From Candidatus Limnocylindria bacterium (lineage in GTDB: Bacteria; Chloroflexota; Limnocylindria; P2-11E): a stretch of 64,000 nt of DNA. Within the stretch, counting starts at the first letter, position 1. Every line of letters starts with the position of its first letter. A program made the position numbers and the translations under genes. The stretch is taken from positions 9,172 through 73,171 of the forward strand of contig DASYXA010000065.1 in the NCBI GenBank assembly GCA_035935465.1. Reading direction: 5' to 3'. Below are positions 1 to 12,664 of the stretch, piece after piece. The notes under the pieces were generated by a model. The model was given only the letters and a program-made list of their open reading frames with translations, had not been told where the DNA came from and did no database searches.

Positions 1-784
1 TCGCGCGCGCGACGCCGACGACGTCCGGCGCGTTCGGCGTGAGCTTCACGATCACCGGGAGGTCCGTCTCCTGCTTCACGGCCGCGGTCACCTGCCCCGC
101 GAGGTCCGGATCGAAACCGAAGAGCATCCCGCCCTTCACGTTCGGGCAGGAGATGTTCAGCTCATACGCGACGACGCTCGCGATGCCGGCGAGCTCGCCC
201 ACCACCCTCACGTAGTCGTCGACGCTGTACCCGGCGACGTTCACGATGACCGGGACGCCGAGCTGGGCCCAAGCCTTCGCGTACTTCCTCGCGACGCCGG
301 CCGCGCCGGGGTTCTCGAGCCCGATCGAGTTCAGGATCCCCGACGGCGTCTCCGCGATCCGGTACTGCGGGTTGCCCGGCCGCGCGAGGACCGTCGTGCC
401 CTTGTTCACGATCGCGCCCAGGCGCGACACGTCGATGAGCTCGGCGTACTCGACCCCCTGCCCGAACGTCCCCGACGCCGTGAGCACCGGGTTGCGGAGG
501 CGCAGCCCGCGCGCGGCGTCGACCGCGAGGTCGACCCCGTCCTCGGGCCGCTCGGCCGAGTGGACCGGCGTGACGACCGCCGAGTCGGAGAGCTCGACGC
601 GCGCGAGCTGCGCCGCGAGCGGCGAGGGACCGCGCTGATCGGGGTCGACCTCGCCGGTGGCGGCCTCGACGATCGAGGCGCCGTCGACGTCCGCGAGCTC
701 CACCGCCTCGTCCTCCTCCTCGCCGGCCGAGAGCTCCTCGAGCGTCTCCTCGATCGCCCGGCTCACGTTGACCGGCCGGTCCAC
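1..784 (-). CDS. pyrD: Dihydroorotate dehydrogenase (type 1B) catalytic subunit PyrD, 3'-partial (runs off window start). Start uncertain: GTG at 784 or 714.
   Basis: Hand translation of the minus strand gives ...GLRLRNPVLTASGTFGQG...ETPSGILNSIGLENPGAAG...YELNISCPNVKGGMLFG...VIVKLTPN, matching the DHOD N-terminal half. It lies directly downstream of pyrK. The frame is absent from the ORF track because the gene has no stop inside the window. Confidence 0.75.
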   Translation of the reverse strand, partial: MDRPVNVSRAIEETLEELSAGEEEDEAVELADVDGASIVEAATGEVDPDQRGPSPLAAQLARVELSDSAVVTPVHSAERPEDGVDLAVDAARGLRLRNPVLTASGTFGQGVEYAELIDVSRLGAIVNKGTTVLARPGNPQYRIAETPSGILNSIGLENPGAAGVARKYAKAWAQLGVPVIVNVAGYSVDDYVRVVGELAGIASVVAYELNISCPNVKGGMLFGFDPDLAGQVTAAVKQETDLPVIVKLTPNAPDVVGVARA

Positions 785-810
785 CTTCCTCCGTGGCCTG
801 CGCCAGGGCA

Positions 811-1641
811 TCAGGCGGTCGACCCGACGGTCGCGGGCTCGCCCTCGCTGAACCGCATGTCGCCGAGCTCGAACACCGGTCCCTCACGGCACACGCGCGC
901 GTTGCCCGCCGCGGTCACGACCACGCACGCGCGGCAGACGCCCATCGCGCAGCCCATGTGCTGCTCGACGGCGATCTCGGCGTCGAGGAGCACCTGCCGC
1001 CCGGGGAACACGGCGCTCGCGCGGGCGGCCTCGTCGCGCATGCGGCCGAGCGCCGCGAGCATCGGCCACGGCCCGCAGGCGCAGAGCTGATCGGCCCACG
1101 CCAGGAGCGGTCGCAGCGCGTCGGTGACCCGGCCCGCGATCCCGAACGACCCGTCGTCGGTGGTCGTGACGTATTCGACCGTCGGCGGCAGCAGCCGCGA
1201 CGGCCAGAGGTACTGGATCGAGCGGCCGCCCATGACGAGGGTGACGTTGCGGCGCGAGGACTCGTGCTCCGCGAGCACCCGCATCGGCGCGATGCCCGTG
1301 CCGCCCGCGACGAGCAGGAGGTTCTTCGTCGAGCGCTGGATGACGAACGCGCTGCCGAGCGGGCCGAGGAGGTCGAGGTCGTCGCCCGGGCGGCGCGACG
1401 CGATCCATTCGCCACCCTCGCCGAGCGGCTTCACGATGAGCTCGATCTCGCCGGCCTGGCGGTCGATCCGATTGAAGGAGTACGGCCGCCGCAGGAGCGG
1501 ATCGAACCGCTGCCCCGGTCGCACGTGCACGAACTGCCCGGCGCGCGCCTGGGCGGCGATGCCCGGCGCGGCGACGTTGAGGACGACGCCCAGGTCGCCG
1601 ATCTCGCTCCGCGCGAGCACGCGGCCGTTCTCCAGGATCAC
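811..1641 (-). CDS. pyrK: Dihydroorotate dehydrogenase electron-transfer subunit PyrK (FAD/NAD-binding, 2Fe-2S).
   Basis: Motifs VKPLGEGG, LVAGGTGIAPM and the C-terminal Cys cluster GCAMGVCRAC..VCREGPVF. The probable start is GTG at 1641, which overlaps the upstream toxin stop as GTGA. The ATG at 1728 would give an atypical 29-aa extension. Confidence 0.85.
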   Translation of the reverse strand: MILENGRVLARSEIGDLGVVLNVAAPGIAAQARAGQFVHVRPGQRFDPLLRRPYSFNRIDRQAGEIELIVKPLGEGGEWIASRRPGDDLDLLGPLGSAFVIQRSTKNLLLVAGGTGIAPMRVLAEHESSRRNVTLVMGGRSIQYLWPSRLLPPTVEYVTTTDDGSFGIAGRVTDALRPLLAWADQLCACGPWPMLAALGRMRDEAARASAVFPGRQVLLDAEIAVEQHMGCAMGVCRACVVVTAAGNARVCREGPVFELGDMRFSEGEPATVGSTA

Positions 1642-1997
1642 GATGGGTCCGCCACGGTCTCGCCGAGCGCACGACGCACGCCTCGAATGACCGCGCTCAG
1701 GACCTCGCCCGAAACAGGCATTCCCCACGGGCCACGCGAGAGGAACTCGCGATCCACCGTCGTCAGCTCCTCGCAGAAAAGGACCCCATCCTTCTTGAGG
1801 CCGCCTAGCCCACGCTCGATCCGCACGTGCGTCGGCCCGGCCGCTCCGCGAGAGAAGATCGGCACCACCATCACGTCATCGGCGATGCGATTCCGCACAT
1901 CCGAAGACACGACCAGAGCCGGGCGCGGCTGGTGCGGATCGTCAGGCTGTCCCGGCAGGCGCACTGACCAGATCTCGCCTCGCGTCGGGGTCGTCAC
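1638..1997 (-). CDS. MazF/PemK-family type II toxin (endoribonuclease-like).
   Basis: TRGEIWSVRLPG...RPALVVSSDVRN...VMVVPIFSRG...GLKKDGVLFCEELTTVDREFL matches the PemK/MazF core. The GTG start at 1997 overlaps the antitoxin stop as GTGA. Confidence 0.8.
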   Translation of the reverse strand: MTTPTRGEIWSVRLPGQPDDPHQPRPALVVSSDVRNRIADDVMVVPIFSRGAAGPTHVRIERGLGGLKKDGVLFCEELTTVDREFLSRGPWGMPVSGEVLSAVIRGVRRALGETVADPS

Positions 1998-2284
1998 GTC
2001 GCGCGGTCGAACCGCTTGCGGGCCGCCGCACCGCGGATCCGTCGCCACTCAACGCGCTCGGCGTCGTAGTGCGCGGCATCCTCGCGGAGTTGTCGCTCCA
2101 TGGCGACCTCTTGCTGCCGCTCATGCCAGAGCCGCAGCGCCTCATCGATCACGGCGCTGCGATCCGTTCCCGGCGTATCGGCGACGTGCGCATCCACGAC
2201 CGCGACGAGATCGGGATCGAGCGTCGCTCCGACCTTGACCCGCCGACGGATGGGAGACATAGTGTCCGACACTATACCAGACAT
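1994..2284 (-). CDS. Ribbon-helix-helix (CopG/MazE-like) antitoxin. Alternative start at the internal Met near 2260.
   Basis: A small protein sits immediately upstream of the toxin and overlaps it by 4 nt. SPIRRRVKVGATLDPDLVAVVDAHVADTPGTDRSAVIDEALRLWHERQ is a typical RHH antitoxin N-terminus. Confidence 0.7.
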   Translation of the reverse strand: MSGIVSDTMSPIRRRVKVGATLDPDLVAVVDAHVADTPGTDRSAVIDEALRLWHERQQEVAMERQLREDAAHYDAERVEWRRIRGAAARKRFDRAT

Positions 2285-2290
2285 ATTGGG

Positions 2291-2698
2291 TCACGGCAGA
2301 ACGGTTCCTACGGCGAACGTGTAGCCGTCCGGGTCCTCGAGGATCACGTCGCGCCAGCCGTGCGGCCAATCGCGCGCGCCGAGCAGCACGATCGAGCCGC
2401 GCTCCTTCGCGCGCCGCTCGGCGGCGTCGGGGTCGATGCCGAGGATCCGGATCTCCGCGCCGAGCCCGCGCTTCCCGGCCTCGGCGAGACGCGGAGCCCA
2501 GGGCTGCTTGTCGTAGGTGTGGTCGGCGTGCAGCACGATCTGGGTGGAGTCGAGCTGCAGCGCGGCCATGTCCTCATCCGAGTAGTGGACGGTCATGCCC
2601 AGCACATCCCGGTAGAACGGGACGCTCTTCTGGACGTCGCGGACGATGAGGTTGAGCGACAGCCCGGTGAGGGTCTTGCCGTACGCGTCCGATGCCAT
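2291..2698 (-). CDS. VOC-family (glyoxalase/bleomycin-resistance fold) protein.
   Basis: MASDAYGKTLTGLSLNLIVRDVQKSVPFYRDVLGMTV...VILEDPDGYTFAV is a VOC paired beta-alpha-beta-beta-beta module. The internal ATG at 2698 was chosen because the tracked ORF start at 2839 would overlap carB. Confidence 0.7.
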   Translation of the reverse strand: MASDAYGKTLTGLSLNLIVRDVQKSVPFYRDVLGMTVHYSDEDMAALQLDSTQIVLHADHTYDKQPWAPRLAEAGKRGLGAEIRILGIDPDAAERRAKERGSIVLLGARDWPHGWRDVILEDPDGYTFAVGTVLP

Positions 2699-2724
2699 CC
2701 ACGGCGTGCCGGTGCGCCTGGTCG

Positions 2725-5700
2725 TCACGCCACGATCGGCGCGCTGCGGTATTCGCTCAACGGGGCGACGCTGTAGCGCTGCGCGCTCGCGCGGAGCGCG
2801 GTAACGACGGCGAGCGCGGTGTCGAGCGACGTGAGGCACGGCACGCGCGCCTCGACGGCGGCACGGCGGATGAGGAAGCCGTCGCGATCCACCGCCTTAC
2901 CGAGCGTCGGGGTGTTCACGACGGCGGCGCACTGCCCCGACCGGATGATCTGGAGGATCGTGGCGTCGCCGTCGCCGAGCTTCGGCACCTCCTGGACCTC
3001 GATGCCGAGCGAGCGGATGAGGGCGGCCGTCCCGCGGGTCGCGACGAGGTCGTACCCCAGCCAGTGGAACCCCTCGATGATCGACACGATCTCGGCCTTG
3101 TCCTTGTCGGCGACGGTGATGAGCACCTTGCCGCTCGGCATCGGCGCGAGGCCCGCCGCGACGAGCGACTTCCACAGCGCCGGCGCGAACGTGCGATCGA
3201 TGCCGATCACCTCGCCGGTGCTCTTCATCTCGGGACCGAGGTACGTGTCCACGTCGAGGAGCTTGGCCATCGAGAAGACCGGGGCCTTGAGCGCCACGAG
3301 ATCGCCCGACGGCCAGAGGCCATCCGCCCGCGCGTAGCCCTCGGCCGCGAGCGTGCTTCCGGCCCCGATCGCGACCGCGAGCTTCACCATCGGCACGCCG
3401 GTGACCTTCGTGAGGAACGGGACCGTGCGGCTCGCGCGCGGGTTCACCTCGAGGCACCACACGCGGCCCTCTTCGACTATGAACTGGATGTTCAGGAGGC
3501 CTCGGACGGGGAGCGACGACGCGATCTTCCGGGTGAGCTCGACGATCAGGTCGCGCTCCGCGGGGCTGAGGTTCGCCGCGGGGTACACCGCGAACGAATC
3601 GCCCGAGTGCACACCGGCCCGCTCGATGTGCTCCATGATCCCGGCGACCAGGGTGTCCTCGCCGTCGCTCACCGCGTCGACCTCGACCTCGCGCCCGCGC
3701 ACGTACTTGTCGACCAGCACGCGCCCGAAGCTCGCCTCGAGGGCCGAGCCGAAGTAGCGGTCGAGGTCGTCGGGCCCGTACGCGATCTCCATCCCGCGTC
3801 CGCCGAGCACGAACGACGGCCGCACGAGGACGGGGTACCCGATCCCGTCGGCGATCGCCCGCGCCTCGCTCAGCGAGTCCGCTGTTCCCCCGGGCGGCTG
3901 CGGGATCCCGAGCGCCGTGGCGAACTCGTGGAACCGCCGGCGATCCTCGGCCAAGCCGATCGCGTCGGCGCTCGTGCCGCTGATGTGGCCGCCGATGTCG
4001 GCGATCCGCTCCGCGAGGTTGAGCGCCGTCTGCCCGCCGAACTGCGCGAGCACCGCGACGTCGCCGCCCTCGTTCGCGAGGACGCTCGCGACCGATTCCT
4101 CGTCGAGCGGCTCGAAGTACAGGCGGGCCGACGCGTCGAAGTCGGTGCTCACCGTCTCGGGGTTGCTGTTGATCATGATCGCCTTGATGCCCCGCTCATC
4201 CAGCGCCATCGCGCTCTGGACGCAGCAGCAGTCGAACTCGATACCCTGCCCGATGCGGATCGGGCCGGATCCGAGGATCACGGTCTTCGGGCCCTCGAGC
4301 GCGGGCGCCTCGTTCTCCTGCTCGTACGTCGAGTAGAAGTACGGCGTCACGGCCTCGAACTCGGCGGCGCAGGTGTCGACCATCTTGTAGACCGGCACGA
4401 TCCCCCACTGGAGCCGGAGCCGGCGGACATCGGACATCTGGACGCCGCAGAGCGCCGCGATGTCGACGTCCGAGAAGCCCATGCGCTTCGCGCGCCGGAG
4501 CAGCGTCGGGTTCGGCGTCCGGCCCTCGAGCTCGTCGGCCGCGAATCGCACGACGTTACGGAGCTTGCGCAGGAACCAGCGGTCGATGCGCGTCGCGTCG
4601 TGGACCGCGTCGACGGTCGCCCCGCGCCGGAGCGCCGCGATGACCCGCCAGATCCGGTCATCCGTCGGCTCGCCCGCGAGGTAGCGCGCGACGAACGCGG
4701 CGGGATCCGTGCTGCCGGTCCATGCCGGCGCCTCGGCGAACAGGCTCTGGCCCTTGATCTCCAGCGAGCGGAGCGCCTTCAGCATCGCGGCCTCGAACGT
4801 CCGATCGATGGCCATGACCTCGCCCGTCGCCTTCATCTGCGTGCCGAGCCGGCGGTCCGCGGTGCGGAACTTGTCGAACGGCCAGCGTGGGATCTTCACC
4901 ACGACGTAGTCCAGGGTCGGCTCGAACGCCGCGGTCGTCATCTTTGTGACGGCGTTCGGGATCTCGAACAGCCGCTTGCCGATCGCGATCTTCGCCGCGA
5001 CGCGCGCGATCGGATAGCCCGTCGCCTTCGACGCGAGCGCCGATGAGCGCGACACCCGCGGATTGACCTCGATGACGTAGTACTGAACGCGCGCGTCGGG
5101 GTCATCGGACGGCGAGGCGTCGGGGTGCAACGCGAACTGGACGTTGCACCCGCCCTCGATCCCGAGCGCGCGGATGATCTTGAGCGCGGCGCTCCGGAGC
5201 TGCTGGTACTCCTTGTCCGAGATCGTCTGCGACGGCGCCACGACGATCGAGTCGCCGGTGTGCACGCCCATCGGATCGATGTTCTCCATGTTGCAGACGG
5301 TGATGCAGGTGTCGGCACCGTCGCGCATCACCTCCCACTCGAGCTCTTTCCAGCCCGTCAGGCTCCGTTCGACCAGGATCTGCCCGATCGGCGACGCGCT
5401 GATGCCGCGCTGCGCGCGCTCGCGGAGCTCGGTCGCGTCGGCCGCGAAGCCGCCGCCGGTCCCGCCGAGCGTGTACGCCGGCCGGATCACGACCGGGTAG
5501 CCGATACGCTCGGCGAACGCGACGGCCTCGTCGACGGTGTGCGCGGTCACGGATTCCGGCACCGGCTCGCCGATCTCGATCAACAGCTGCTTGAACGCCT
5601 CCCGGTCCTCGGCCTTGCGGATCGCCTCGAGCGGCGTGCCCAGGAGCTTCACCGCGTACCGCTCGAGGACGCCGGCGTCGGCCAGCGCGACCGCGAGGTT

Positions 5701-5979
5701 CAGGCCGGTCTGCCCGCCGAGGGTCGGCAGCAATCCGTCCGGGCGCTCGCGCTCGATGATCCGCTCGAGGACCTCGACGGTGAGCGGCTCGAGGTACGTG
5801 ACGTCGGCGACTCCGGGGTCGGTCATGATCGTCGCGGGATTCGAGTTCACGAGGATCGTCTCGATCCCCTCTTCGCGGAGCGCGCGGCAGGCCTGCGTGC
5901 CGGCGTAGTCGAACTCGGCGGCCTGGCCGATGAGGATCGGGCCCGAGCCGATGATCAGGACCTTCACAGGTCCAGCCAT
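2725..5979 (-). CDS. carB: Carbamoyl-phosphate synthase large subunit.
   Basis: 1084 aa from the ATG at 5979 ([30 protein letters not shown]...). Two ATP-grasp halves and an MGS-like C-terminus are present. The 72-aa R-rich extension at the tracked ORF start is rejected. Confidence 0.95.
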
Positions 5980-6791
5980 CCGCCACCGGCGATCGCGCAG
6001 CGCCCGCCGACGTGCACGCTCGTGATCCGCTCGCGGCCGCCCCCGACGCGCACGTAGAGGAGCGACGGGCGTCCCATCTCGTAGCCCTGCTCGGACACGA
6101 TGCGCGCGCCATCCGACAGACCGTGGCGCACGAGATACGCGCCGAGCGGTCCGTTCGCGGAGCCGGTCGCTGGATCCTCGGCGATGCCCTGCCACGGCGC
6201 GTACATCCGGCCGTGCACCGTGGACCCCGGCTCGACGGTCTCGGTGGTGAAGATGTAGGCGGCCTCGGCGAGCCCCCGCGGCGACGCGCGCTCGACCGCG
6301 TCGAGCGTCTTCACCGCCACGAACATGAACCGGTTGCCGCTCGAGCCGACCTCGATCGGCAGCCCTGTCTCCAGATCCGCGACCTCGAGCGACAGGGACC
6401 TCGCGACCGCCGCGCGGTCGGCGACCGGCTCGAATGTCGGCAGGGGCTGCTCCATCTCGCTGAAGCCGCCGCGCACGGTGACCCGCAGCGTCCCGACCTG
6501 CTCCTCCAGCCGGAGTGTCGCGTCCTGCGCGCCGGCCAGCACGTACGCCGTGCCGACCGTCGGGTGCCCGGCGAACGGCAGCTCGCGCGACGGCGTGAAG
6601 ATCCGCAGCCGGTGATCGCCACCCCGCTCGGCCGGGACGACGAACGTCGTTTCCGGGAGATTGAGCTCCTGCGCGGCGGTCTGCATGACGGTGCCGGCGA
6701 CGCCGCGACCGTCACGGAAGACCGCGAGCTGGTTGCCGCCGAACTTCCGGTCGGTGAAGACGTCGACCAGCGTGTATTCGTGGTGGGTCAT
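5964..6791 (-). CDS. PhzF-family (phenazine biosynthesis-like / DAP-epimerase fold) isomerase-like protein.
   Basis: [25 protein letters not shown]...[36 protein letters not shown], 275 aa. Its ATG at 6791 overlaps the carA stop (ATGA) and its stop lies 16 nt inside the carB start. The tracked 639-aa ORF is this gene plus a spurious antisense N-extension. Confidence 0.85.
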
Positions 6792-7924
6792 GCGCGCCGC
6801 GCGACGGCGTCGCGCACGTCGTCCATGAACCGGTCGAACACGGGCTCGTTGTCGCGCGGACCCGGCGCTCCCTCGGGGTGGTACTGATACGTGCGGATCG
6901 GCAGCGTGCGGTGGGCGAGACCCTCGACCGAGCCGTCGTTCAGGTTCCGCTTGCTCACGTAGAACTCCGAGTGCAGCGGCAGGGACGTCTCGTCGACCTG
7001 GAACTCGTGGTTCTGGCTCGTGATCACGACCTGCCCGGTGACCGTGTCCTGCACCGGGTGATTGCTCCCGTGGTGGCCGAACGGGAGCCGCGACGTCGAG
7101 GCCCCGATGGCCCGCGCGAGCAGCTGATGGCCGAGACAGATGCCGAGGATCGGCACCGGCCGCCCGGCGCCGCGGCTCTCGGCCATGTCGAGGAGGATCT
7201 TCACGTTCGCGGCGACCGATCCGATCGCGGCCGGGTCGCCCGGGCCGTTCGTGATCACGATGCCGTCGGGCGACCAGGACAACACCGAGCGCAGGCTCGA
7301 CTCCACCGGGAACACGCGCACCGCCGCGCCGCGTTGCACGAGGCTGCGGATCTGGTTCTCCTTCACACCGGTGTCGATCAACGCGATCTTCGGCCCGGCG
7401 CCGACGGTGCGCTCGACGGAAACGCTCGCCTCGGCGACCAGCGGCCGCTGCGCGAGCGGCGTCGTGGCGCGGGCCTTCGCGACCGCCTCGGTCCCGATGT
7501 CGGGATCGAGCGCGCGGTGCGGCGGGACCTGGATGAGCGCGCCGCGCAGCGTGCCGGACGACCGGAGCCGGCGGGTGAGCGCGCGCGTATCGACGCCCGC
7601 GATCCCGGGGACGCCGTTCGCGCGCAGGTACGAGTCGAGGTCGTCGGTCCCCTCGCGGCACGTCGCGTTCAGCTCGCGCACGACGAGCGCCTCGACCCAC
7701 GGCTTGCGCGATTCGGCGGCGCGATCGAACACGCCGTAGCTCCCGATGAGCGGGAAGGTCATCACGACGATCTGTCCGTTGTACGACGCATCGGAGGCGA
7801 CCTCCTGATAGCCGGTCATCGCCGTGTTGAACACGACCTCGCCCGACGCGTTCGACGAATCGCCGAACGCCTCGCCCCACCACACCGAACCATCCTCGAG
7901 CCCGAGGGCGGCCGCCCTGCTCAT
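6788..7924 (-). CDS. carA: Carbamoyl-phosphate synthase small (glutaminase) subunit.
   Basis: MSRAAALGLEDGSVWWGEAFG... with class-I GATase motifs ICLGHQLLA and HPE. Start assigned to the ATG at 7924; the tracked start at 8020 would read through the AT-rich leader. Confidence 0.9.
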   Translation of the reverse strand: MSRAAALGLEDGSVWWGEAFGDSSNASGEVVFNTAMTGYQEVASDASYNGQIVVMTFPLIGSYGVFDRAAESRKPWVEALVVRELNATCREGTDDLDSYLRANGVPGIAGVDTRALTRRLRSSGTLRGALIQVPPHRALDPDIGTEAVAKARATTPLAQRPLVAEASVSVERTVGAGPKIALIDTGVKENQIRSLVQRGAAVRVFPVESSLRSVLSWSPDGIVITNGPGDPAAIGSVAANVKILLDMAESRGAGRPVPILGICLGHQLLARAIGASTSRLPFGHHGSNHPVQDTVTGQVVITSQNHEFQVDETSLPLHSEFYVSKRNLNDGSVEGLAHRTLPIRTYQYHPEGAPGPRDNEPVFDRFMDDVRDAVARRA

Positions 7925-7927
7925 CGG

Positions 7928-7962
7928 TGCATAACTATACATGTCCGATGCATAAAGATGCA
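7928..7962. promoter_or_regulatory. AT-rich island with two TGCATA-containing dyads 21 bp apart, a candidate ArgR operator (ARG-box-like) abutting the carA start.
   Basis: TGCATAACTATACATG at 7928 and TGCATAAAGATGCA at 7949–7962 compare with the ARG box TNTGAATWWWWATTCANW. The island is conspicuous in ~72% GC DNA. Confidence 0.4.
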
Positions 7963-8020
7963 ATTGGCGCTCGAGGAGCAGCGCCTCGCGCTCAGCGGCC
8001 GCGATCCGCCGGCGACCCAC

Positions 8021-9250
8021 CTAGGCGAGCGCCCGCGTCGATCCGTCGAGCCGCAGCTCGCCGTCCACCGCGGCGGCGACGACCTGTCCGACGAGGCCGC
8101 GTCCGAGCAGCGGCGTGTTCTTGCCGAGCGACCGGAGCGAGGCCGCAGCGGGAGTCCACGCAGCGCGCGGATCGATGACCACGAGGTCGTTCGGCGGGAG
8201 CGCGATGCCGAGCACGCGGGCCGGACCGACCGTGAGCGCCTCGACCACTCGGTCCCAGGTCCCCCACCCCGCCGCGACACCGGCGAGCAGCAGCGGTACC
8301 GCGGTCTCGAAGACCGAGATCCCGAACGCGGCGTCTTGGTACTCGACGTCCTTCCGCGTGGACGCGTGCGGCGCGTGGTCGGTCGCGATCGCGTCGATGG
8401 TCCCGTCCATCAGGCCCGCCCAGCAGGCGCGCACGTCGGCGGCCGTGCGGAGCGGCGGATTCACTTTCGTCGACGTGTCGAACGGGAGGACCGGGGGGCG
8501 AGGCCCCCCGGTGGCCGTGTCTTCCCAGGCGAACGCGCGCGAGCCGGCGACCCACTCGTCGGTGAGCGCCAGGTGATGCGGCGTGACCTCGCAGGTGATC
8601 GCGAGTCCACCGGCCTTCGCGCGCCGCACGAGCTCGACGCTGCCGGCGGTGGAGACGTGTGCGAGGTGCAGCCGGCCGCCGGTGAGCTTCGCGAGCGAGA
8701 GGTCGCGGGCGATCGCGCTCTCCTCGGCCGCGGCCGGGATCCCCGGCAGGCCGAGCCGCGCGGACACGACCCCCTCGTGCATCACGCCACCGGCCGAGAG
8801 TGCCTGGTCCTGCGAGTGCTCGAAGATCGGGCGCCCCGCCGCCCGCGCGTACTCGAGCGCGTTGCGGAAGAGCTGCGCGTCGCCGACCGGCGATCCATCG
8901 TCCGAGAACGCGACCGCGCCGGCGGCCGCGAGCTCGACGAGGTCGGCCAGCTCGGCGCCCTTGCGCCCGCGGGTGATCGTCGCGATCGGGAGCACGCGCG
9001 CGGCGGTCGCCGCCTCGCCGCGCGCGATGACCTCGGCGATCAGGCCGGGCGAGTCGATGGCCGGCTCGGTGTTCGGCATGGCGCAGATCGTGGTGAACCC
9101 GCCGGCGAGCGCGGCGCGGGCCCCGGTGGCGATGGTCTCCGACTCCTCGAAGCCCGGCTCGCGGAGGTGCGCGTGCAGGTCGATGAAGCCCGGTGCCGTG
9201 ATGAGTCCGCGCTGCTCGGCATCACGCTTGAGATCCGCCGGCACGCTCAC
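8021..9250 (-). CDS. pyrC: Dihydroorotase.
   Basis: Hand translation from the GTG at 9250 gives [50 protein letters not shown]... The GTGA overlap with the pyrB stop supports this start. The N-terminus is ~30 aa shorter than typical. The first 410 aa of the tracked 819-aa ORF are antisense to pyrB and rejected. Confidence 0.85.
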   Translation of the reverse strand: MSVPADLKRDAEQRGLITAPGFIDLHAHLREPGFEESETIATGARAALAGGFTTICAMPNTEPAIDSPGLIAEVIARGEAATAARVLPIATITRGRKGAELADLVELAAAGAVAFSDDGSPVGDAQLFRNALEYARAAGRPIFEHSQDQALSAGGVMHEGVVSARLGLPGIPAAAEESAIARDLSLAKLTGGRLHLAHVSTAGSVELVRRAKAGGLAITCEVTPHHLALTDEWVAGSRAFAWEDTATGGPRPPVLPFDTSTKVNPPLRTAADVRACWAGLMDGTIDAIATDHAPHASTRKDVEYQDAAFGISVFETAVPLLLAGVAAGWGTWDRVVEALTVGPARVLGIALPPNDLVVIDPRAAWTPAAASLRSLGKNTPLLGRGLVGQVVAAAVDGELRLDGSTRALA

Positions 9251-10191
9251 GCCGTGTGCTCCGGCGTGCCGGCGAGGAGATACAGGAGGGCCATCCGCAC
9301 CGCGACGCCGTTGGTCACCTGCGTCTCGATGAGCGATCGCGCGCCATGCGCGACGGACGCGGCGATCTCGACGCCCTCGTTCATCGGCCCGGGGTGGAGC
9401 ACCGGCGCATCCGGCCGCATGCGCTTCGCCCGCTCCTCCGAGAGACCCCACGTGCGCGCGTACTCGCGCAGCGAGGGCAGCAGGCCGGCGTGCTGCCGCT
9501 CCTTCTGGAGGCGCAGCGCGATGACCGCGTCCGCGCCGTCGAGCGCGCGGTCGAGGTCCGGCTCGAACACCGTTCCCCGCGGCGTCATCCCGCAGCGCCA
9601 CGCGGACGGCACGAGCGTCGGCGGTCCGGAGAGCGTGACCGTCGCGCCGAGCGGCACCAGCGCGTCGATGTCCGACCGCGCGACCCGCGAGTGGGTGATG
9701 TCCCCGACGATCACGATCCGCTTGCCGGCGAGGTCGCCGAGGGCGGCGCGCAGGGTGTAGGCGTCGAGGAGCCCTTGGGTCGGATGGGCGTGCCATCCGT
9801 CGCCGGCGTTGATCACCGCCGCGTCCGTGCGCTCCGCGACGAAGTACGGGGCACCCGATGCGGCGTGGCGCATGACGATCACGTCTCCGCCCAGCGCCGT
9901 GAGCGTGCGCACCGTGTCGAGGAGGGTCTCGCCCTTCTCGACCGACGAGCCGCTCGCGGTGACGTTCGTGACGTCCGCGGAGAGCGCCTTCGCGGCGAGC
10001 TCGAACGACACCCGCGTGCGGGTCGACGCTTCGGCGAAGAAGAGGATGACGGTCCGGCCGCGGAGCGCCGGGGTGCGGCGGATCGGCCGGCCGAGCACCT
10101 CGACCATCGCGCTCGTCGTGTCGAGCACGTGCTCGATCTCGCCGCGTGACCAATCGTCCGTCGCGAGCACGTGGCGGCGCTGCCAGCTCAT
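9247..10191 (-). CDS. pyrB: Aspartate carbamoyltransferase catalytic subunit.
   Basis: [13 protein letters not shown] and HPGP motifs, 314 aa. The start at 10191 overlaps the pyrR stop. Confidence 0.92.
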
Positions 10192-10727
10192 GCCGCCACC
10201 CCGGCGTGGACGAGCTCGACCTCGTCCGTGCCGCCGGTCTCGACGAGCTGGACGCGCACGTCGTCGGTGAGCGCGGTCGGCACGTTCTTGCCCACGAAAT
10301 CGGCGCGGATCGGCAGCTCGCGGTGGCCACGGTCGACCAGGACCGCCAGCCGGATGGCCCGCGGCCTGCCGTAGTCGACGAGCGCGTCCATCGCGGCGCG
10401 GATCGTGCGGCCGGTGAACAGGACGTCGTCCACCAGGACGACGATCTTGTCGTCGACCGAGAAGGGGATGACCGATTCACGGACCACCGGCGCGTGACCG
10501 ATGCGGGTCAGGTCGTCGCGGTACAGCGTGATGTCGAGCGACCCGAGGGGAAGGTCGAGGCCCTCGTTGCGGCGGATCGCGTCGTGGAGCCGCGTGGCGA
10601 TCAGATCGCCGCGCGCGCGGATCCCCACGAGCGTGAGCGCGGGAAGGTCGCGATCGCGTTCGACGATCTCGTGCGCGATGCGCGCGATGGCCCGTCGGAC
10701 GTCGTCGGGCGCGAGGATGATCGGCAG
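10188..10727 (-). CDS. pyrR: Bifunctional pyrimidine operon regulator / uracil phosphoribosyltransferase PyrR. Start is non-canonical (candidate CTG at 10727).
   Basis: Hand translation upstream of the tracked GTG gives [64 protein letters not shown], a full PyrR N-terminus. No ATG, GTG or TTG lies between the in-frame TAA and this conserved region. Confidence 0.85.
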
Positions 10728-10730
10728 CTG

Positions 10731-10770
10731 CGCACTCCCTTTCCGGCCTCGCAGGACCGGTCGTTAAAGG
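10731..10770 (-). promoter_or_regulatory. PyrR RNA-binding loop in the pyrR leader, overlapping the Shine-Dalgarno sequence. Probable -10 (TATACT) just upstream on the same strand.
   Basis: The leader reads UUUAACGACCGGUCCUGCGAGGCCGGAAAGGGAG. Compare the PyrR binding-loop consensus RUCCNGNGAGGYU preceded by UUUAAC. AAAGGGAG is the SD. Confidence 0.6.
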
Positions 10771-10792
10771 TCGACGCGTGTACCGTCAGTAT

Positions 10793-11491
10793 ATGCGGCT
10801 TCTCACCGCGATCTTCGCCGTGCTGGCGCTCGTCGCGATCGCCGCGCTCGCGAGCGCGCCGCGCCCGGGTCCCGTCACGCTCGCAGTGCCGCCGACCCCC
10901 ACGCCGCGGGTCTGGGACTGGCCGCCGGCGGCGCCGACGGAGCAGCCGACGCTCGCGCATCCGCGGCTGCTCTCCGGGTTCATCGTCCCGGTCGACGGCG
11001 TGGCCATCCCGACCGATGCGCTGCACCTGCCGAACTCCCCCCGCGACTACCGCGCCGGCTATCACGAGGGCATCGACTTCCCGGCGAACGCCGGAGCGCC
11101 CGTGCATGCCGCGAAAGCGGGCACCGTCGTCCGCGTCGACAGCGCGTTCACCGAGTGGACCGCCGCCCTCGAGCAGGCCGCGTTCACGGAGTCGCTGGCC
11201 CTCGGGTACACGCCGACCGCGATCCTCGACCGGATCCGCGGGCGCCAGGTCTGGATCGATCACGGCCGTGGCATCGTGACGCGCTACGCGCACCTCTCGG
11301 CGGTCGCGTCGCTGCGGGTCGGCGATCCCGTGGCGCAGGGCCAGGTCATCGGCGCTGTCGGGAGCTCGGGCTACCCCGAGGGCGGGCCGCATCTGCACTT
11401 CGAGATCCGCGTCGGCGATGACTTCTACGGCGATGGGCTGCCGCTTCCGCAGCTGCGCCACGCGATCAGCGTGGCGTTCCGATCGCCATGA
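10793..11491 (+). CDS. M23-family (LytM-type) metallopeptidase with N-terminal signal/TM segment. Alternative GTG start at 10778.
   Basis: YHEGIDF..GAPVHAAKAGTVV...HGRGIVTRYAHL..VGDPVAQGQVIGAVGSSGYPEGGPHLHFEIR carries the HxxxD and HxH motifs of peptidase M23. Confidence 0.85.
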   Translation: MRLLTAIFAVLALVAIAALASAPRPGPVTLAVPPTPTPRVWDWPPAAPTEQPTLAHPRLLSGFIVPVDGVAIPTDALHLPNSPRDYRAGYHEGIDFPANAGAPVHAAKAGTVVRVDSAFTEWTAALEQAAFTESLALGYTPTAILDRIRGRQVWIDHGRGIVTRYAHLSAVASLRVGDPVAQGQVIGAVGSSGYPEGGPHLHFEIRVGDDFYGDGLPLPQLRHAISVAFRSP

Positions 11492-11507
11492 GCGGTCGAC
11501 CGCGTGG

Positions 11508-12170
11508 CTACTTCCCGATGTCGGGCAGCAGGAACAGCAGCAGGAACGAGAGCGCGTTGAGCGTCCCGTGGGCGAGCGCGTTCGTCCAGAGGCTGTGCCG
11601 CCGCTCGTAGAGGTACGCGAGCGCCATCCCGAGCGCGAAGACCGGCAGCCAGGCCGCGATCTCGTGCGCCACGGCGAAGAGCGCGCTCGACAGGATCGCG
11701 GCGGAGGCGAAGCGCATCCGCTGCCGGAGCAGCCCGAACAGCACGACCCGGAAGAAGAGCTCCTCGACGACCGCCACGACGCCGGCGCCGAAGAGGAGAT
11801 CGATGACGAGGCCGGGGAGCGAGCGGTGCGCGGCGGCGGCCGCGATGAGCGACTGCGGGTGCGCGCCGACGACCGCGGCCTGCAGATTGGCGATCGCGAT
11901 CGAGAGCAGCCACAGCGCGACGCCGGCGCCGATCCCGAGGCGGGCGCGGACCGGGGCCGCGAGGCCGAGGTCGGCGCGCCCGAGCCCTGTCCAGACGCGC
12001 AGCAGCACGAGCAGGCCGACGCCGAGCGTGAGGTCCTGGGCCGCGGTGAGGATGCCGATCTGCTCGGGGGTGAGCTGGTCGAGGTGGCCGATCGGGATGG
12101 CGAACGCGCGCCCGGCGACGAGGACCGCGACGTTGGCGACGAGGAACGCGGCGACCGCGCTGACGAGCAC
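11508..12170 (-). CDS. CPBP-family (CAAX-protease-like) intramembrane metalloprotease.
   Basis: Motifs EELFFRVVLFG, FAVAHE and HGTLNA in a polytopic hydrophobic protein. Confidence 0.8.
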   Translation of the reverse strand: MLVSAVAAFLVANVAVLVAGRAFAIPIGHLDQLTPEQIGILTAAQDLTLGVGLLVLLRVWTGLGRADLGLAAPVRARLGIGAGVALWLLSIAIANLQAAVVGAHPQSLIAAAAAHRSLPGLVIDLLFGAGVVAVVEELFFRVVLFGLLRQRMRFASAAILSSALFAVAHEIAAWLPVFALGMALAYLYERRHSLWTNALAHGTLNALSFLLLFLLPDIGK

Positions 12171-12217
12171 CGGCCAGAAGCGCCACCGCCGAGGCGGCGC
12201 GGCGGGCGCGGGAGTGT

Positions 12218-12664
12218 CTAGCGGAGGCCGGTCCGTCGTGCCCGGAGCGCCGCCTCGAGCACGACCTCACTCCAATCGGAGGCGAGTGGCCGTGGCGTGC
12301 GCGCGAAGACGCCGATCTCGGCGACGTCCTCCGGGGTCTCGTACGCCCACGGGACGTGGCGCACTTCGCACATGTACACGTACGAGGTCGACGGCTTCGG
12401 GTCGGTGGAGCGGATCGCGCCGAGGAGGTCGAGCTTCGAGGCGACGATGCGGGCGGAATCCCAGAGCTCGCGCTTGGCGACCTCGAGGATCGTCTCGCCG
12501 GAGCGGCGGGTGCTCGTCGGGAACTGCCAGCCGGTGCCCTGCTCCTTGCGCACGAAGACGGTGAGGTCGCCGTAGAAGGGGATGATCACGGCCAGCTGGG
12601 CCGAGGCCGGTGGGTACTCGCGGAAGGCGTTGTCGCGTCGCGATACGAACGTGGCGTCGGCCAT
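12218..12664 (-). CDS. NUDIX-like hydrolase (degenerate Nudix box).
   Basis: GETILEVAKRELWDSARI resembles G-x5-E-x7-REUxEE. Size and position are plausible. Confidence 0.45.
   Translation of the reverse strand: MADATFVSRRDNAFREYPPASAQLAVIIPFYGDLTVFVRKEQGTGWQFPTSTRRSGETILEVAKRELWDSARIVASKLDLLGAIRSTDPKPSTSYVYMCEVRHVPWAYETPEDVAEIGVFARTPRPLASDWSEVVLEAALRARRTGLR

Follow-up and report, generated by a model that had tools for sequence, protein, structure and literature searches.

The 64,000-nt stretch of DNA analysed here (the window) comes from Candidatus Limnocylindria (Chloroflexota), an uncultured soil bacterium, and carries on its minus strand a pyrimidine biosynthesis (pyr) operon with the gene order pyrR-pyrB-pyrC-carA-(phzF)-carB-VOC-mazE-mazF-pyrK-pyrD (Table 1). 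In the window and in homologous loci the core genes pyrR-pyrB-pyrC-carA-carB-pyrK-pyrD follow the Bacillus-type order and a PyrR protein is encoded. Between carB and pyrK lie genes for a VOC protein, a ribbon-helix-helix (RHH) antitoxin and a MazF toxin, which an initial annotation of the window had proposed and which matches to PF00903, PF01402 and PF02452 bear out. The same annotation described carB and pyrK as contiguous in Bacillus-type operons, and in that of Sporolactobacillus (L052) the two are indeed separated by 35 nt. Here, we compare the locus with its relatives, obtained by scanning species-representative genomes with pyrK and metagenomes with MazF and by looking up individual homologues, with genes mapped by tblastn. 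The mazEF pair is probably a bona fide type II toxin-antitoxin (TA) accessory cassette with a promoter of its own, and not a dedicated regulator of UMP (uridine monophosphate) synthesis.

The limits of the cassette can be read from relatives that lack it. In a MAFFT alignment, L009, L013, L014, L015 and L023 have a clean 653-nt gap at window positions 2290-1638, and in the five cassette-free relatives within the window's clade pyrK is 90-95% identical. With the cassette the carB-pyrK interval measures 1083 nt; where it is absent, about 430 nt. CGTGA bounds the cassette on both sides, and the edges are ambiguous by 5 nt; a target-site duplication was considered for these flanks and rejected, since only GTGA is consistently shared across relatives and is explained by its stop/start function. 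Of 34 species representatives whose carB-pyrK interval is complete, 5 have mazEF and 25 have VOC, so the three genes are not the universally conserved part of the operon that the initial annotation had allowed for. The patchy presence of mazEF marks it as a dispensable accessory cassette; VOC is far commoner in these pyr operons. The GC content at third codon positions (GC3) of mazE and mazF is 0.78-0.80 in the window compared with 0.93-0.96 in the flanking genes, and across loci the respective ranges are 0.68-0.83 and 0.84-0.97, with mazE and mazF distinct in all 11 of the 11 loci tested. The codon composition of the cassette has not blended with that of the host operon.

MazF homologues of at least about 65% identity sit in Limnocylindria pyr operons, with the exception of the module in L062 and L118, and homologues with 65-90% MazF identity share the same architecture; more distant homologues are free-standing RHH-MazF pairs. 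Type A loci read carB-(PNPOx or MFS)-VOC-mazE-mazF-pyrK, and type B loci, confined to one clade, read carB-MFS-mazE-mazF-VOC-...-pyrK, again with the mazF stop overlapping the next start. The mazF stop is fused to the pyrK start in every type A relative that carries the module, and in type B mazF overlaps the VOC start. In cassette-free relatives the VOC stop takes this place, sharing GTGA or ATGA with the pyrK start.

The toxin (1641-1997) scores 63 bits against the PF02452 (PemK_toxin) profile, for which the cut-off is 23.1, and covers profile positions 2-107 of 109; its sequence matches in the PDB include B. subtilis EndoA, S. aureus MazF, Kid, and M. tuberculosis MazF7 and MazF9. In an alignment of 23 homologues with EndoA, columns R25, P26, N36, P55, T56, E76 and T80 are invariant, and R25 and T56 align to EndoA R25 and T48. 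We take the catalytic Arg and Thr/Ser pair to be R25/T48 in B. subtilis EndoA and R29/T52 in E. coli MazF, so the catalytic residues of this MazF appear intact. An exact database look-up of the 119-aa protein returned no match. The antitoxin (1997-2284) reaches 21.6 bits against PF01402 (RHH_1; cut-off 20.5), a marginal match, and several sources name its homologues Arc/MetJ-type RHH regulators. Both profile results answer the check by hidden Markov model (HMM) that the initial annotation had proposed for the two small proteins. Against the NCBIfam MazE equivalog NF050104 the antitoxin scores 18 bits, below the cut-off of 65, and it is best described as a predicted RHH protein that is paired with MazF and stands outside this curated equivalog. 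An AlphaFold2 monomer model has helices at residues 16-28 and 34-87; its N-terminal strand is unformed (pLDDT <50 at residues 6-9), in keeping with the modelling of a single chain of an obligate RHH dimer, and its top Foldseek matches (MazE-mt1, NikR, ParD2, ArtA and Arc) are all RHH proteins and all weak (E >= 0.34).

The RHH-MazF pair co-occurs in all but a few loci of the family, and among these loci no intact mazF was seen without mazE. One locus (L040) has an orphan antitoxin, with mazE kept and mazF lost, and in another (L076) mazF is frameshifted and has no mazE upstream. Median pairwise dN/dS, the ratio of nonsynonymous to synonymous divergence, is 0.15 for mazF, 0.13 for mazE and 0.23 for pyrK across 14 pyr-resident loci; mazF and mazE are under purifying selection and as constrained as pyrK. 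On the evidence of profiles, alignment and co-occurrence, the module is read as a bona fide type II MazEF, an RHH-type antitoxin with a MazF toxin, forming an accessory cassette at the VOC/pyrK junction.

From mazE to pyrD the genes are joined stop to start. The mazE stop and mazF start share GTGA (1997-1994; ATGA or GTGA in relatives), the mazF stop (TGA 1638-1640) and pyrK start share GTGA (1641-1638), and pyrK and pyrD share TGATG. The mazF start site at 1997 is GTG or ATG in relatives, and that of pyrK at 1641 is mostly GTG, with ATG in L014 and TTG in L028. Such switching of start codons at a fixed position supports both starts and both overlaps, which the initial annotation had read correctly. 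A profile match to the electron-transfer subunit PyrK of dihydroorotate dehydrogenase B (DHOD-B) spans 814-1641 on the minus strand, and pyrK GC3 is 0.96. Shorter MazF calls of 108 aa, made from an internal GTG, are frequent and occur, for example, in a near-identical contig from a public sequencing run (L121, 2376-2702) and in database entries P0022, P0034 and P0038. They drop the conserved first beta-strand and hide the 4-nt mazE overlap, an annotation pitfall of the family; the 108-aa form in L121 was rejected as a truncation, since it lacks the RGEIWSV strand, whose conservation extends to B. subtilis EndoA.

Two other starts differ from those of the initial annotation. VOC had been started at ATG 2698, and this is ruled out: GTG 2728 overlaps the carB TGA (2725-2727) by 4 nt, the resulting 10-codon N-terminal extension VTT(K/R)RTGTPW is conserved and has a GC3 of 1.00, the extension opens with ATG in L023 and L025 while the internal ATG is lost in L023, and NCBI annotates an identical VOC protein at 145 aa. 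The antitoxin most likely starts at ATG 2260 (88 aa), and the in-frame ATG 2284 was rejected. Most of the at least 120 antitoxin homologues listed are called at 88 aa, and the eight extra codons from ATG 2284, one of them a rare ATA, have a GC3 of 0.50, compared with 0.80 in the rest of the gene and about 0.95 in the operon, and fall on a promoter- and operator-like repeat motif at the DNA level. The reported 6-nt gap from VOC to the antitoxin thus does stand in the sequence, but only with ATG 2284 as the start, and the functional junction is probably elsewhere: from ATG 2260 the genes are separated by a 30-nt, AT-rich spacer. Only at this and one other of the junctions examined between pyrC and pyrD do the genes not overlap; the spacer contains no Shine-Dalgarno sequence, so that read-through transcripts offer no ribosome-binding site for mazE.

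From the VOC stop to ATG 2260 the spacer reads cccaatATGTCTGgTATAGTGTCgGACACTATG, and we rejected it as a simple coupling gap, since it instead holds an extended -10 element and a palindrome. The extended -10 (TGgTATAGT) has its TG at 2279-2278 and TATAGT at 2276-2271, with the ATG 10 nt downstream of the box. A perfect 17-bp palindrome (8+1+8), ATAGTGTC-G-GACACTAT, lies at 2275-2259 and takes in the AT of the start codon, and RTGTC repeats start at 2284, 2272 and 2260, a spacing of 12 nt. GC content falls to 0.50 in the spacer, one of the two lowest values in positions 1-12000. The window has only two copies of TATAGT, both on the operon strand, one before mazE and the other 9 nt before the carA ATG; the recurrence of this box 9-10 nt before ATG at both genes gives it the appearance of a genuine promoter layout in this lineage. 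The mazE-upstream element is conserved in pyr-resident relatives, and in free-standing RHH-MazF loci of the family, too, a TAnnnT box lies 7-10 nt ahead of the antitoxin start. A TATAAT-like box with at least 5 of 6 matches was found in 25 of 57 unique family loci, against 1.6% of background windows (P about 1e-29), and in the subgroup with K(V/I)GAT antitoxins TGTC/GACA tetramers number on average 2.95 per 55 nt, against 0.33 in the background (P about 5e-16). Antitoxin subgroups differ both in their upstream repeats (GGTAGGACA...GTAGTAC in one, CCTACCGAT...ATCGGTAGG in another) and in their beta-strand sequences, a qualitative correspondence that would look like co-evolution of operator and repressor. 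RNA folding of the spacer is not better than that of shuffled sequences (z = -0.69), and the palindrome is accordingly read as a DNA operator, not as an RNA structure. The operator core TGTCGGACA has one further exact copy in the window, in a coding region (59658), and near-matches occur at chance level. The module thus probably has its own autoregulated, near-leaderless promoter, which would then also drive pyrK-pyrD. The only promoter-like match that a sigma-70 scan reported here, TTGACC-17-CATAGT (2235-2263), lies on the plus strand and is directed into VOC; the palindrome probably produces it incidentally, although the operator region could in this way be transcribed divergently.

The initial annotation had instead assumed an operon under PyrR/UMP control, in which the module would be co-transcribed and co-translated with the pyr genes and, having no autonomous expression, would deliver toxin according to pyrimidine status. 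Part of this stands. The pyrR gene is present at the operon head, and its leader carries a hairpin, CCGG-TCCTGCGAGG-CCGG (10743-10760, minus strand), directly before an AAGGGAG ribosome-binding site; the hairpin is conserved in all clades as CCTTTAAnGACCGGTCCTGnGAGGCCGG (CCGG-UCCUGnGAGG-CCGG) and presumably matches the PyrR binding-loop consensus, so that PyrR control of the operon head is plausible. Rfam found no family, PyrR included, either at the gathering threshold in the whole window or at E <= 1 in positions 1-12500. Between carB and pyrK there is no terminator better than chance, and carB/VOC, mazE/mazF and mazF/pyrK each overlap by 4 nt. With nothing terminator-like intervening, some read-through from the carA-carB-VOC unit into mazEF is likely. 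A terminator-like hairpin inside mazF (1802-1782) is within chance expectation. Co-transcription with the downstream genes is unavoidable, given that no gap or terminator follows mazF: the shared GTGA of mazF and pyrK and the shared TGATG of pyrK and pyrD mean that a mazEF transcript must continue into pyrK-pyrD. The translational chain probably does not, however, extend to the upstream pyr genes, from which the module is separated by the VOC|mazE spacer with neither overlap nor Shine-Dalgarno sequence.

The operon also seems to be divided before that point. An element upstream of carA, TTGCATCTTTATGCATCnGAnnnGTATAGTTATGCACC, is near-invariant in 25 of 25 distinct carA-upstream sequences examined and looks like an internal, near-leaderless carA promoter. 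In the window it reads caaTTGCATctttatgcatcggacatgTATAGTtatgcaccgATG (7922-7965, minus strand), between pyrC and carA and 9 nt before the ATG, and it is kept even where carA is only 77% identical; its repeated TTATGCAyC half-sites resemble what we take to be an ArgR-type operator. Conserved promoter-like elements before carA and mazE would thus segment the pyr operon, which makes tight PyrR control of the toxin unlikely. The -10 box and operator repeats of the mazE spacer are also found in free-standing family members, so that toxin dosage is more likely set by the module's own promoter than by PyrR and UMP, and the sequence comparisons yielded no evidence supporting a functional tie of mazEF to pyrimidine metabolism. 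We therefore regard expression of the module solely as a passenger of the PyrR/UMP-controlled operon as unlikely, and with it the proposed coupling of toxin dosage to pyr-operon expression.

With regard to the history of the cassette, the pyr-resident MazFs form three subclades in a neighbour-joining tree that mirror three pyrK clades, and synonymous divergence (dS) is higher for mazF than for pyrK in the same genome pairs (for example, 0.97 versus 0.46 between the window and L001), which makes recent transfer unlikely. A sister module (L062, L118-L120), with a MazF that is about 70% identical (L062/L118), lies between AlkZ-like and EamA genes; its position outside the pyr operon implies at least one relocation. 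VOC identity is out of step with that of pyrK (72% for VOC and 95% for pyrK in L011 and L012), which suggests recombination in the carB-pyrK interval. The cassette would have entered the operon early in the lineage and then been inherited vertically, repeatedly and precisely lost or swapped out by recombination (allele replacement), relocated at least once, shifted across VOC in one clade, and occasionally decayed.

An alternative is domestication, in which the pair, or its promoter and repressor alone, would have been co-opted to control pyrK-pyrD in response to stress and independently of PyrR, or MazF would tune the stability of pyr mRNA, so that the location would be an adaptation for pyrimidine metabolism. 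The position has been kept over deep divergence (pyrK about 75% identical) with the toxin stop always fused to the next start, and both genes show the purifying selection noted above. In type A loci the toxin is followed by pyrK, in type B loci by VOC. However, species whose pyrK is 90-95% identical are cleanly without the cassette and have pyrK coupled to VOC, orphan and decayed copies exist, the cassette retains its atypical codon composition and a close sister module lies outside the operon. This overall pattern is typical of accessory TA loci and not of an integrated regulator, and domestication seems to us quite improbable.

A different role is suggested by the carB-pyrK interval itself, which spans 2 nt to 5.4 kb across species representatives and carries MFS, PNPOx-like, methyltransferase and Hcp-like genes in different species. 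TA cassettes stabilise variable arrays such as superintegrons, and the module could accordingly be an addiction device for this hypervariable interval, or an abortive-infection system, with its location in the pyr operon incidental. Yet a PADLOC scan gave no matches, the interval showed no integrase or phage genes and no attC, and in the window's clade VOC is the sole neighbour that could be stabilised and is kept just as well where the cassette is missing. We give defence or stabilisation only a slim chance.

Taken together, the reading that we prefer is that of an accessory cassette transcribed from its own extended -10 promoter, which MazE or the MazE-MazF complex would repress through the overlapping palindrome. 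The mazEF mRNA would be leaderless or have a leader of 2-4 nt and would continue into pyrK-pyrD, with upstream operon read-through probably adding further mazEF transcripts. pyrK would be translated by termination-reinitiation at GTGA and probably depends on ribosomes terminating at the mazF stop; in cassette-free relatives it would be re-initiated likewise from the VOC stop. The cassette behaves as a selfish or accessory TA element would, placed where an imprecise deletion is costly. A stronger version, in which the cassette is entrenched and partly co-opted because the mazF stop is the re-initiation site of pyrK and the MazE-repressed promoter is the nearest to pyrK-pyrD, is doubtful. Were it true, synthesis of the DHOD-B subunits would be mechanically tied to toxin-gene translation and TA autoregulation, antitoxin degradation would, through derepression, open a stress-responsive and PyrR-independent branch of pyrimidine control, and a selfish element would be hard to lose save by base-precise deletion.

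Several observations weigh against the accessory cassette with its own promoter. The -35 region is poor, with 3 of 6 matches, and a sigma-70 promoter scan made no call at the minus-strand mazE site, which it missed because of this weak -35. Perfect inverted repeats, sought generically upstream of family members, were no commoner (25%) than in the background (25%), and both enrichment P-values count related loci as independent. The RHH assignment is marginal by HMM and the fold matches of the monomer model are weak. The neighbour-joining trees carry no support values, and the sister module (L062, L118) is nested near the pyr-resident clade yet lies outside any pyr operon. Finally, the organism is uncultured, and promoter, repression and toxicity are predictions from sequence.

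Table 1. Genes and other features of the pyr operon in the window, listed in the direction of transcription.
Feature	Position	Strand	Basis
pyrR	about 10188-10727	-	NF003549 equivalog, 228 bits (cut-off 138)
pyrB, pyrC	between pyrR and carA	-	gene order
carA	6788-7924	-	
PhzF-family isomerase gene	5964-6791	-	PF02567, 202 bits
carB (carbamoyl-phosphate synthase large subunit), 1084 aa	2725-5979	-	open reading frame and translation; CPSase_L domains in homologous loci
VOC gene (glyoxalase / bleomycin-resistance fold), 145 aa	2291-2728	-	PF00903, PF18029, PF22677
Promoter- and operator-like spacer	2256-2290	-	sequence reading, conservation, enrichment
mazE (RHH antitoxin), 88 aa	1994-2260	-	PF01402
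mazF (PemK/MazF endoribonuclease toxin family), 119 aa	1638-1997	-	PF02452
mazEF cassette, 653 nt	1638-2290	-	indel relative to module-less relatives
pyrK (DHOD-B electron-transfer subunit), 276 aa	811-1641	-	PF10418, NF000799
pyrD	start only; gene runs off the window	-	

The remaining genes of the operon add some further observations. The VOC protein (2294-2728) scores 36 bits against the PF00903 Glyoxalase profile, and its AlphaFold2 model (pLDDT 87, pTM 0.81) has 347 PDB matches at E <= 0.001, VOC proteins throughout those listed, with Foldseek values down to E = 5e-10. By TM-score the model is closest to the mitomycin-binding protein MRD and a Burkholderia VOC-family protein (0.69), with values of about 0.55-0.65 for other antibiotic-sequestering VOC proteins (TnmS and ZbmA). 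The top structural match is an integron cassette protein; an integron-cassette origin was considered and rejected, given that the 4-nt overlaps leave no room for attC. The PhzF-family gene shares an ATGA overlap with the carA stop and overlaps the carB start by 16 nt; its GC3 is fully host-like (0.93), and it is present in some relatives and absent from others. Depending on the species, the plasticity zone between carB and pyrK (L004, L007, L036, L039, L040, L042 and L044) holds an MFS transporter, a PNPOx-like protein, a methyltransferase-like protein of 517 aa and, in L040, a pair of Hcp-like proteins. The pyrR start is apparently CTG (10725-10727, minus strand), with no in-frame ATG, GTG or TTG between the upstream stop and the conserved N-terminus; this CTG, which L037 and L045 share, follows the ribosome-binding site by 7 nt, and other clades have ATG or GTG at the aligned position. 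In clade-3 loci without the VOC overlap (L035 at about 1560-1597, L037 and L038), a motif (C/T)CTGCGAGACTTG that resembles the loop of the pyrR-leader hairpin stands just before the pyrK start and might be a second PyrR site.

The toxin family and its mechanism are already known; the novelty lies in the setting, with an essential biosynthetic operon, a stop/start fusion with an essential gene and a natural series of presence and absence. Full-text literature searches returned no account of a TA module in a pyr operon, nor any paper that connects Limnocylindria with TA systems. Compared with the Bacillus-type operon (pyrR-pyrP-pyrB-pyrC-carA-carB-pyrK-pyrD-pyrF-pyrE), the core from pyrR to pyrD has the same order, a PyrR protein and the UCCUGnGAGG leader hairpin, but here phzF, VOC and mazEF are interleaved and promoter-like elements precede carA and mazE. 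Unlike in Bacillus PyrR attenuation, the hairpin abuts the ribosome-binding site, resembling mycobacterial-style translational control. Modules co-transcribed with host genes have precedents. In the relA-mazEF (chpA) locus of E. coli a MazF-family toxin lies downstream of, and is co-transcribed with, a metabolic/stringent-response gene, although MazE there has an AbrB/SpoVT-type and not an RHH fold, and mazEF is the last unit, with no essential gene dependent on its translation. In Bacillus, Staphylococcus and Listeria, MazEF (EndoAI/EndoA, ydcDE/ndoAI-ndoA) lies directly upstream of, and is co-transcribed with, the sigB operon (PMC5308263, PMC7470975). These sigB-linked modules resemble the present one in having an RHH-type antitoxin followed by a MazF with conserved catalytic Arg/Thr, and in being chromosomal modules within a conserved housekeeping or regulatory cluster that are transcribed with downstream non-TA genes (predicted here). 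They differ in that the MazF described here is only about 26% identical in the EndoA alignment, the module here sits in a biosynthetic (pyr) operon and its toxin stop overlaps the start of a gene for an essential enzyme subunit, presence is patchy and not near-universal in the lineage, and the mRNA is predicted to be near-leaderless. This last feature recalls M. tuberculosis, in which TA operons are predominantly leaderless (PMC3898074), in that the -10 box here lies 7-10 nt before the start codon. The RHH MazE of M. tuberculosis MazEF9 (MazEF-mt1, PDB 6KYT) is likewise the best, though weak, structural and sequence match of the antitoxin, and MazF9 is among the PDB sequence matches of the toxin. 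However, the mycobacterial modules are free-standing, with no metabolic-operon coupling described, and the similarity to MazE9 is low (E = 0.79).

The significance of the locus is limited by a well-known toxin family, by the precedents for mazEF co-transcribed with housekeeping genes and by uncultured hosts. Within these limits it provides a natural example of a chromosomal TA cassette wedged into an essential biosynthetic operon, with the toxin stop doubling as the launch site of the next gene, and it shows that accessory genes build up between carB and pyrK in the pyr operons of Ca. Limnocylindria. The empty site, the orphan antitoxin and the decayed copy found in close relatives form a useful series for the purpose and persistence of TA systems, one that bears on whether such a module is a selfish element entrenched by translational coupling or has a physiological role.

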